Virus record (IMG/VR): IMGVR_UViG_3300032328_000581
Location: 1 to 64,000 of that record
Source of the DNA: a virus
Taxonomy: Duplodnaviria; Caudoviricetes
Strand: one strand, 5' to 3'
Length of the DNA: 64,000 nucleotides
Made by a program: the position numbers and the translations under genes. The notes beneath the pieces are model-generated. The model saw only the letters and a list, made by a program, of their open reading frames with translations. It was not told the origin of the DNA and did no database searches. Shown piece after piece: positions 1,204 to 42,235 of the stretch (positions are counted from its first letter, which is position 1; each line of letters opens with the position of its first letter).

Positions 1204-1277
1204 GCGCTGTTAGCTCAGTTGGTTAGAGCCCCGAACTCATAATTCGGTCGTCGTAGGTTCAAGTCCTACACAGCGCA
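1204..1277 (+). tRNA. tRNA with CAT anticodon (elongator Met or lysidine-modified Ile2); CCA not encoded
   Basis: Acceptor GCGCTGT/ACAGCGC, D-arm GCTC/GAGC, anticodon arm CCGAA-CTCATAA-TTCGG, T-arm GTAGG-TTCAAGT-CCTAC, discriminator A; no initiator hallmarks. Confidence 0.93.
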
Positions 1278-1302
1278 CGGCGCACTCTAGAAGGAGGAGT
1301 GT

Positions 1303-1395
1303 CTTTGGTCTGACGAGACCTAAGGTAAAACACGTCCCGTAAGCATCGGGGTATATCTGCTTCCTGTCCTGAGCATGACAAGGCTAAACTGCTCA
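1303..1395 (+). ncRNA. Three tandem H-type pseudoknot units
   Basis: Each unit is a stem whose loop pairs downstream after a TAWAWC/TAAAC linker (GACG/CGTC, AAGCA/TGCTT, GAGCA/TGCTC). Confidence 0.6.
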
Positions 1396-1418
1396 TTACC
1401 CATGCCCAAGGAGGTTGC

Positions 1419-41559: not shown

Positions 41560-42235
41560 TTCTTCTCCGATCTCCTTTTGGAGCATTTACAACTAAGGGT
41601 ATAAACGCTTCGTGTATAAAACTGGACATAGGCTCACCATACACAGTTTCCCAATCTTTTGTCGGAACGTTTGTTGTAATTATCGTTGGCAAGCCCGAAT
41701 TAAATCTAGAGCGCAGAAGGGCGTCAAAGGTATTCTCAGCCCATCCGGTAGCAGTCCGGTACTCCTTGCCTAGGTCGTCCAACACAAACAGCTGTAGGTT
41801 CTCTACAGGGCTTAGATCCCCAAAGATTGCATCTATCTCTCTTTGGTCTGATTCGTTCTCTTCATCCCACTGAGCCTTCTGAGTACGCAAAAGCTTTGGA
41901 TAGTCCATAAAAGCCCCCAGGCGAGGAGGTAGGGCTTCCGTTGGGCCGTATAAACGATCGGGAATGGCCCTAATAAGGCTTTGAAGGGCCACAGAAGCTA
42001 TCGTGGTCTTTCCGTGACCCGGTTTACCTACTAAAAGGATGCCAAGGCCGCAGATAGGGGATCCAGGGGTTCTAATGACCTTTCCAGATAGAACTGACTC
42101 CGTCCAAGCCATGACCTGGGTTTTGGTGTCAGAGTCGTCTAAGTCTGAGAATTCCATACCTAGGGTTTTTACTGGAACACCTGAACGGCTAAGGCGACTT
42201 CTAGTGCTTGGGCGTTCTTGGCTAAGGTCGTACAT
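41546..42235 (-). CDS. DnaC/IstB-like AAA+ helicase loader
   Basis: GKPGHGKT, LFVLDDLGKE and R...LPTIITTN. Confidence 0.88.
   Translation of the reverse strand: MYDLSQERPSTRSRLSRSGVPVKTLGMEFSDLDDSDTKTQVMAWTESVLSGKVIRTPGSPICGLGILLVGKPGHGKTTIASVALQSLIRAIPDRLYGPTEALPPRLGAFMDYPKLLRTQKAQWDEENESDQREIDAIFGDLSPVENLQLFVLDDLGKEYRTATGWAENTFDALLRSRFNSGLPTIITTNVPTKDWETVYGEPMSSFIHEAFIPLVVNAPKGDRRRNEKE

Follow-up and report, generated by a model that had tools for sequence, protein, structure and literature searches.

What are three small RNA pseudoknots, one directly after another, doing in the short gap between a tRNA gene and a protein-coding gene of a phage? The question is raised by positions 1303-1395 of a 64,000-nucleotide stretch of DNA, the first 64 kb of the 98.9-kb IMG/VR phage record IMGVR_UViG_3300032328_000581 (Duplodnaviria; Caudoviricetes), which we refer to as the window. 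A preliminary description of this DNA placed three back-to-back H-type pseudoknots (units 1 to 3) there, between tRNA-Met and a whiB-like gene. We confirmed that the triple array is real and beyond chance. The knot of unit 3 belongs to a real RNA family of a known structural kind, apparently uncatalogued, which is present here as an unusual triple array.

All pairings listed for the three units are present in the sequence, and the units keep one shared topology, which bears out the earlier proposal of a repeated RNA module (Table 1). One stem length needed correction: stem 2 of unit 3, given as 5 bp, has 6 bp (UGAGCA/UGCUCA). The array ends 12-13 nt before the ribosome-binding site (RBS) of whiB, a distance given earlier as about 14 nt. 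The units can form a chain of three abutting knots; however, C1336 is claimed by both stem 2 of unit 1 and stem 1 of unit 2, so that one of the two helices is short by a pair. A knot scanner, whose loop and stem limits were set after the units had been seen, found 120 H-type candidates on both strands of the window, and this triple is the sole chain of two or more abutting candidates in the 128 kb of scanned strand. Among 20,000 dinucleotide shuffles of positions 1279-1420, chains of three never appeared and chains of two appeared nine times. The whole-window expectation of such a chain is about 0.01, a rough value given the post hoc limits, and the chance of two extra knot-compatible units abutting a real one is about 1e-4. 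The nested minimum free energy (MFE) fold of the array is unremarkable (z = -0.44), as expected because MFE folding cannot model pseudoknots.

A scan of fetched loci for knots resembling unit 3 revealed near-identical knots with wholly different first stems in unrelated contigs. A family pattern that fixed only the loop and the 3' strand located at least 119 viral contigs with the knot, together with at least 120 contigs that are bacterial or come from metagenome-assembled genomes (MAGs); according to record titles, the bacterial and MAG matches listed include Saccharibacteria, Firmicutes, Actinobacteriota, Cyanobacteria, Chloroflexota, Bacteroidota and Proteobacteria. Copies are also present in the cultured phages Mycobacterium phage Labelle (46 bits), Paracoccus phage ParMal1 (35 bits) and Erwinia phage Berlingot (29 bits). 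The consensus alignment (A1) and the covariance model built on it (R1) comprise 114 distinct 29-nt copies. The consensus reads, in order, a variable 5-bp stem 1 closed by C-G, a C loop, UGAGCA, any nucleotide, the 3' strand of stem 1, NAAAC and UGCUCA. C6, U7 and AAAC are invariant in A1 and near-invariant across phyla; by analogy with luteovirus-type knots, the invariant C loop and AAAC suggest base triples stiffening both stems.

Both helices of the family are supported by compensatory change. Stem-1 pairs 2-4 occur as all four Watson-Crick types among the 114 copies, and the covariation score of 0.445, compared with 0.116 in shuffles, was reached by none of 500 shuffles. Stem 1 is paired in 91% of cases, falling to 25-34% once the partners are slid by 1-3 columns; the harvest demanded pairing, which builds in part of this percentage but not the variety of pair types. 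Candidates chosen without any stem-2 constraint showed bimodal pairing of stem 2, with modes at 5-6 and 0-2 pairs, and seven of their loop variants had a matching 3' strand versus one without. In a looser scan, for which about 22 random matches of any kind are expected as background, the recurrent compensated stem-2 types were UGAGUA/UACUCA, UAAGCA/UGCUUA, UGGGUA/UACCCA and UGGACA/UGUCCA. As the preliminary description anticipated, no named Rfam family fits: searches with cmscan returned only tRNA for positions 1100-1500 at E up to 10, for the whole window at the gathering threshold and, with Rfam 15, for canonical copies in contig L102 (we designate fetched loci by L numbers). Literature searches on structured phage RNAs brought up no description of the knot, and one with motif strings gave noise.

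Membership in this family differs among the three units. Unit 3 scores 27.2 bits against R1 (E 1.5e-5), the sole match in the window and in the whole 98.9-kb genome; it has every feature of the family architecture, and its 9-nt linker is also seen in several other copies. Units 1 and 2 gave no match to R1 at E up to 10. Unit 1 retains the C-G closure and AAAAC and departs from the consensus by a loop U, a loop of 6 nt and a second stem of 4 bp. In unit 2 the lengths agree with the family, the closure is G-C, the loop base is U instead of the invariant C and the linker is AUAUC instead of AAAC; the first pair of its stem 2 is A-U, as in the compensated family variant UAAGCA/UGCUUA. The unit 1 orthologue in L047 possesses a canonical loop, and the 5' two-thirds of R1 match it at 15 bits (E 0.005), which argues for descent of unit 1 from a family knot. 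We read the array as one canonical copy (unit 3) and two probably diverged copies (units 1 and 2).

Four close relatives of this phage (L001/L007, L009 and L010, with WhiB proteins 83-98% identical) carry the same array. Positions 1201-1389, a block of 189 nt from the tRNA through H0, the hairpin that precedes unit 1, and units 1-3 to the last linker base, are 100% identical among them, while the flanking coding DNA in L001 is 73-85% identical, i.e. 15-27% different. Perfect conservation of units 1 and 2 indicates that selection still acts on them. U1390G is the only change within the array and opens one stem-2 pair of unit 3. Conservation ends exactly before the 3' strand of that stem, which is the site of this substitution.

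Finding more distant arrays required a different handle, since a WhiB-based search of viral and metagenome contigs yielded only near-identical arrays, and WhiB relatives of 48% identity or less are not accompanied by one. In an INPHARED blastn search with the locus, the tRNA was the only part matched. Distant arrays were located by searching with the 3' end of the tRNA and, for L047, by motif pattern. Three 100-kb phages (L029, L030 and L035) have the order tRNA, H0, unit 1, unit 2 and unit 3, followed by an unrelated gene. L026 and L031 have an H0 stem of different sequence, keep the stem of unit 1 with a 14-nt loop and lack unit 2; in their unit 3, each stem contains two compensatory pairs. 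The L047 array consists of unit 1, unit 3 and one further knot and also lacks unit 2, and its unit 3 contributes another compensated pair, C-G to U-A. No tRNA was found in the 1.2 kb examined upstream of the L047 array; in every other orthologous locus the 5' partner of the array is tRNA-Met. The H0 stem is kept in L029 through one-sided G-C/G-U changes and is entirely different in L026, and the H0 loop stays purine-rich in orthologues (GAGGAGGG, GGAAGGGG). A structured insert of about 95 nt with nested long-range stems lies between tRNA-Met and H0 in L026 (3764-3860) and L031.

Since unrelated genes follow the orthologous arrays of L029, L030, L035, L026 and L047, what accompanies the array, if anything, is the tRNA and not whiB. 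The link to whiB proposed earlier is not supported, and the knot family looks instead like a generic phage boundary element. Covariation, which had been claimed among the three units themselves, is very strong for unit 3 at the family level; within the array it is weaker than claimed, with units 1 and 2 failing to match R1 and the five full-length orthologous arrays showing one compensatory versus three broken pairs, a result that is not significant, the sequences being too similar. Stem 1 of unit 1 does covary (GGUC/GACC here versus GGUG/CACC in L047), and its stem 2 has one compensatory and one broken pair among orthologues. Unit 2 shows no covariation among orthologues, and its terminal stem-2 pair is broken in three of the five.

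The genomic positions of family copies follow clear rules, which we counted over 151 distinct copies. Only one lies inside a long same-strand open reading frame (ORF). The nearest long 5' ORF is co-oriented in 98 of 103 cases, and the nearest long 3' ORF is co-oriented in 65 of 83 cases and convergent in the other 18. When the end of a co-oriented ORF lies just 5' of the knot, stem 1 begins 4-8 nt past the stop codon in 36 of 48 copies and never closer than 4 nt. A Shine-Dalgarno sequence and a start codon follow 41 copies at 10-39 nt. In fourteen copies the knot lies just upstream, at 3-13 nt, of the start of a tRNA on the same strand, where cutting by RNase P would put the knot at the extreme 3' end of the upstream mRNA; four others come after a tRNA. 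The tRNAs that follow the 14 copies are mostly tRNA-Asp, with Ser, Arg and Gln also represented (e.g. L036 2770-2798, L078, L038, L166, L080, L185 and L084). The UGA inside the knot has no frame preference relative to the upstream ORF.

A U-tract immediately follows 27 of the 151 knots (18%, versus a background of 2%), and some of these knots are the sole structure before a convergent gene 11-18 nt away. Knots with U-tracts (e.g. in L198, L235, L086, L286 and L139) are candidate pseudoknot terminators. The 8 nt past the knot are G-poor, and conservation there (0.1-0.4 bits) consists chiefly in the lack of G; CA-rich, G-free stretches stand 3' of family knots in L036, L054, L103, L107, L113 and L166. 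An upstream hairpin comparable to H0 is found in about a third of copies (37% at -6 kcal/mol or lower, versus 15% in shuffles). Tandem arrays of two or three knots occur in L104, L146, L096 and L047, none as tightly abutted as here. PHROG scans of the genes flanking 20 family copies revealed no common function; phrog_1221 recurs upstream of knots that precede tRNA-Asp, and the phrog_452 endonuclease and phrog_11667 recur downstream. The phrog_452 endonuclease (135 aa, N-terminus MFEY or MYEY) stands directly 3' of a hairpin plus knot in L065, L092, L127, L144, L161 and L163, and knot-marked spacers may serve as insertion points for mobile nuclease genes.

Table 1. Features of the tRNA-Met to whiB interval, in coordinates of the window.
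Feature	Position	Strand	Basis and remarks
tRNA-Met, anticodon CAU	1204-1278	+	ARAGORN; Rfam tRNA 69 bits; CCA not encoded
Hairpin H0	1282-1302	+	MFE fold; between tRNA and unit 1, 4-5 nt past tRNA end
Unit 1, H-type pseudoknot	1303-1336	+	sequence, knot scanner; 8-layer stem 1, 4-bp stem 2
Unit 1, stem 1	1303-1310 with 1317-1324	+	7 pairs and one U.U mismatch
Unit 1, stem 2	1312-1315 with 1333-1336	+	loop GACG with CGUC; A-rich 8-nt linker containing AAAAC
Unit 2, H-type pseudoknot	1334-1363	+	sequence, knot scanner; 5-nt linker AUAUC
Unit 2, stem 1	1336-1339 with 1347-1350	+	CCCG with CGGG; two more wobble pairs possible
Unit 2, stem 2	1341-1345 with 1358-1362	+	loop AAGCA with UGCUU
Unit 3, H-type pseudoknot	1364-1395	+	sequence, family model R1; 9-nt linker ending AAAC
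Unit 3, stem 1	1365-1368 with 1377-1380	+	
Unit 3, stem 2	1370-1375 with 1390-1395	+	UGAGCA with UGCUCA, 6 bp
whiB RBS, AAGGAGG	1408-1414	+	sequence; 12-13 nt past unit 3
whiB-like gene, 105 aa	1419-1736	+	ORF list; 3' neighbour of the array in this phage only

The array is intergenic, downstream of tRNA-Met and on the same strand as all neighbouring genes. The loop and 3' arm of H0 contain a perfect Shine-Dalgarno-like AAGGAGG (1291-1297), 7 nt before UUG 1305; this UUG opens a two-codon mini-ORF within unit 1 (UUG GUC UGA, 1305-1313), whose counterparts have nine codons in L026 and six in L047. Together they could form a decoy ribosome site resembling a stabilising Shine-Dalgarno (STAB-SD) or a start-stop element. 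A Shine-Dalgarno-like sequence of this kind is also conserved in H0 of L029 and L026. H0 was also flagged as weakly terminator-like. A sigma-70 promoter scan around the tRNA gave nothing convincing, and a promoter scan between the array and whiB found no promoter-like site for that gene. The exact 12-mer CCAACACAAACA at 1181-1192 occupies the loop of a 5-bp stem (1179-1202) that abuts the 5' end of the tRNA, and another plus-strand copy is at 41779; its near-copy CAACACAAACA lies directly 3' of unit 3 in the arrays of the L029 type (L029, L030 and L035).

What could such an element do? Our preferred reading, held tentatively and at a little less than even confidence, is that the array is a protein-free mechanical barrier or boundary element, with its 5' and 3' directions about equally probable. 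The array would be transcribed together with tRNA-Met and its three coaxially abutting H-type knots would fold, each being a copy of one portable phage RNA element that is presumably compact and triplex-stiffened. The model of such a knot is the one of the beet western yellows virus (BWYV) type. The placement rules point to a knot that stays folded beside a terminating ribosome, adjoins RNA-processing cuts and belongs to the end of the upstream gene. On long phage transcripts the knot would mark boundaries and halt enzymes travelling along the RNA. Candidate travellers are 3' exonucleases that enter at a cut further downstream, at an RNase P site or at a U-tract end, the 5'-3' exonuclease RNase J, scanning RNase E, and ribosomes. 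At this locus, excision of the tRNA by RNase Z or RNase E would leave the whiB mRNA with a 5'-monophosphate end, from which the order would be H0 at 4-5 nt, a Shine-Dalgarno-like landing site for ribosomes, the three knots and then the real RBS. H0, the decoy site and the knots may shield the whiB message or, equally, cap an RNA that ends just downstream.

The principles of such a barrier have published precedents. Roadblocks at the 5' end stabilise long downstream mRNA against RNase J1 (PMC3997798; also PMC5737220), and a folded viral RNA halts RNase J1 purely mechanically (PMC5760640). Small pseudoknot-like coremin motifs stall Xrn1 and ribosomes (PMC6546385, PMC10520033, PMC10321173). A block to RNase J, i.e. 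a 5' shield for the whiB mRNA, fits the local anatomy as predicted from the sequence; the family-wide anchoring to the upstream gene would fit a role on the 3' side at least as strongly. We regard as doubtful the more specific proposition that the 29-nt knot is a roadblock to exoribonucleases or translocases, the first element outside eukaryotic RNA viruses that resembles an exoribonuclease-resistant RNA (xrRNA), and that the triple stack with H0 and the decoy site protects the 5' end left by tRNA excision.

Several observations weigh against a barrier, or against one of its two directions. Anchoring to the upstream gene and the 18 of 83 convergent 3' neighbours suit a 3'-end element better than a 5' shield, and yet the upstream "gene" here is a tRNA, which needs no 3' cap. 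A role specific to RNase J is not general because some hosts (Erwinia, and those of Pseudomonas-type contigs) are thought to lack this enzyme. Classical frameshifting pseudoknots of this size fail to stall Xrn1 (PMC10321173), so that barrier activity of a plain H-type knot cannot be assumed. Stem 1 is weak in many family copies (about -1 kcal/mol as a lone hairpin), natural variants open one stem-2 pair in each unit of the array, and covariation within units 1 and 2 themselves is not significant. In a 2025 freshwater metatranscriptome, low-depth contigs match whiB and downstream genes (1453-1602, 1680-1830 and 2278-2400), and this sole RNA run has no contigs over 1308-1409; given the low depth and contigs that show no ends, this counts neither way. 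Lake DNA runs of at least 16 studies contain contigs of this phage or its close kin.

Comparison with known systems places the knot near, and outside, several of them. The coremin motif (xrRNA-C) may be set beside the phage knot: both are tiny and consist of a hairpin, an A-rich spacer with UAAAC and bases that pair with the hairpin loop (GAG/CUC, Watson-Crick type), and both have a pyrimidine one-base first loop, are protein-free and occur in tandem or between genes (PMC6546385, PMC10520033, PMC10321173). In coremin the hairpin is 3-4 bp long and closed by a YGAD or YGNNAD loop, the second stem has 3 bp and another hairpin is required downstream, whereas the phage knot has an 8-nt loop starting with CU and a 6-bp second stem and requires no downstream hairpin. 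Coremin belongs to beny-, cucumo- and many other RNA viruses of eukaryotes and acts against Xrn1, where stalling has been shown. The loops of the three units (UGACGA, UAAGCAU and CUGAGCAU, with G, A and U, respectively, as second base) do not fit the coremin loop consensus, since two of the three miss the G that it requires at the second position (PMC10520033). Their spacers hold UAAAAC or CUAAAC and not the full coremin GUUAAACUAC; the next unit could act as the second hairpin for units 1 and 2, and nothing is conserved downstream of unit 3. The likeness between the phage knot and coremin is real but partial, a resemblance and not homology.

In shape, the knot recalls the luteovirid -1 frameshifting knots of the BWYV and pea enation mosaic virus (PEMV) type, which are 28-29 nt long, with a 5-bp stem 1, a first loop of 1-2 nt with a C, a one-base junction, an A-rich last loop able to lie in the minor groove of stem 1 and a spacing of 4-8 nt from the A-site codon. 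Unlike these, the phage knots follow stop codons or tRNAs and not slippery sites within ORFs, are followed by no extended frame and have a longer stem 2 of 6 bp. The stabilisers at Gram-positive 5' ends (5'-terminal hairpins, STAB-SD and stalled ribosomes) share with this locus a hairpin 4-5 nt from the predicted processed 5' end, a perfect unused Shine-Dalgarno upstream of the real RBS and, as proposed here, the logic of blocking a 5'-3' nuclease on monophosphate ends (PMC3997798, PMC5737220). They are, however, hairpins or bound ribosomes instead of arrays of pseudoknots, and a coupling to tRNA excision is not known for any of them. Intrinsic terminators and hairpins of the repetitive extragenic palindromic (REP) type similarly stand just 3' of co-oriented genes, sometimes between convergent genes, and are expected to protect against 3' exonucleases. 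The U-tracts of 18% of the family add to this likeness, but the phage element is a pseudoknot and most copies, having no U-tract, are read through. The upstream pseudoknot domain of the tobamovirus 3' untranslated region (UTR), which has a known role in binding eEF1A, also consists of three consecutive small knots in a quasi-continuous stack beside a tRNA-shaped element. The order there is reversed, with the knots before the tRNA-like structure, the virus is an RNA virus and there is no sequence similarity, which makes this a formal analogy only.

Other classes were considered for the array and rejected. The preQ1-I riboswitch (RF00504) is likewise a small H-type knot, its first stem also has 5 bp, its tail is A-rich as well and tandem copies occur, but cmscan gave no match at E up to 10, the junction is 1 nt instead of 4-6 nt and no queuosine genes are linked. 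A hepatitis delta virus (HDV)-like or theta ribozyme is contradicted by the absence of any Rfam ribozyme match and by the architecture, a hairpin and three separate H-type knots instead of a nested double pseudoknot. For transfer-messenger RNA (tmRNA), ARAGORN reports only the complete tRNA-Met and Rfam gives no match. A tRNA-like acceptor mimic of the turnip yellow mosaic virus (TYMV) type would call for ACCA, which follows only 10 of the 151 copies, and here the knot is followed by UUAC. The class of intrinsic terminators does not suit this array either, unit 3 being followed by UUACCCAU with no U-tract directly after the last helix. A CRISPR-repeat mimic does not fit by architecture or Rfam.

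The alternatives to the barrier reading each account for part of these observations. A 3'-end-forming element, i.e. an unconventional intrinsic terminator or attenuator in which stacked stems replace the hairpin and which throttles read-through from the highly expressed tRNA into whiB, would explain the excess of U-tracts after family knots and the U-tract knots that alone separate convergent genes, and it agrees with the co-oriented upstream gene in 95% of cases and the weakly terminator-like H0. We consider it improbable: no U-tract follows any of the three units or 82% of family copies, transcription must pass through copies that are followed by a tRNA at 3-13 nt or by a coupled start codon at 10-39 nt, and the interval from the array to whiB offers that gene no promoter-like site. 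The knot might instead be directed at ribosomes, halting post-termination or scanning ribosomes or tuning the next start and, together with the H0 loop and the UUG mini-ORF, controlling whiB translation. Frameshift and read-through knots have a spacer of 4-8 nt, equal to the distance from stop codon to knot in the family. Coremin blocks scanning ribosomes and promotes frameshifting (PMC10520033, PMC10321173), and at this locus an AAGGAGG precedes UUG 1305 by 7 nt and the whiB RBS lies 12-13 nt past unit 3. Such control is also improbable, given that a tRNA and not an ORF ends just upstream of the array, that knots before tRNAs or convergent genes have no start codon downstream and that the in-knot UGA has no frame preference; the tight spacing is also what genome compaction combined with the need to escape unwinding by the terminating ribosome would produce.

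Recognition by a partner is a different kind of explanation. The array might be a platform that binds a protein or ligand (an operator, a sponge or a tandem sensor) or a stable trans-acting RNA released with the tRNA, as the near-invariance of C6, U7 and AAAC across phyla, the three tandem sites and the perfectly conserved block of tRNA, H0 and units would allow. In phage T4 the tRNAs are transcribed together with stable RNAs whose role is unknown, which counts in the same direction. We consider this improbable: the 1-nt junction loop leaves no ligand pocket like that of preQ1-I, no Rfam riboswitch matches at E up to 10, flanking genes share no function, the spread over many host phyla disfavours a phage-specific protein partner, and intramolecular triples would account for the residues that are invariant. 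The protein sponge and the tandem ligand sensor suggested at the outset accordingly found no support. Cutting across all these readings, unit 3 alone may be functional, with units 1 and 2 as decaying duplicates or chance complementarity. Their failure to match R1, their deviations at the invariant loop-1 C and the AAAC linker, the loss of unit 2 from L026/L031 and L047 and the lack of significant covariation in both all point that way. It is nevertheless rather unlikely, since both units are 100% conserved where the flanks diverge by 15-27%, two knot-compatible neighbours would arise by chance at a rate of only about 1e-4, and unit 1 has a covarying stem and an L047 orthologue with a canonical loop.

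New in this analysis are the convergent-gene and U-tract statistics, the triple array downstream of a tRNA and the Shine-Dalgarno-like feature of H0. The family is readily testable, with a near-perfect copy in Labelle, a Patience-type phage of Mycobacterium smegmatis, and further copies in Erwinia phages and in a T7-like phage of Paracoccus. With the triple array beside the tRNA, the most compact arrangement found, the effect of copy number could be tested in a natural setting. If the barrier reading is true, synthetic operons would gain a useful part, a block of 29 nt that halts bacterial RNases or ribosomes without any protein, and viral xrRNAs could be compared with it. A tiny portable RNA device that sets where messages start, stop or survive would then be common to phages of many bacterial phyla and would amount to a so far undescribed layer of their gene expression.

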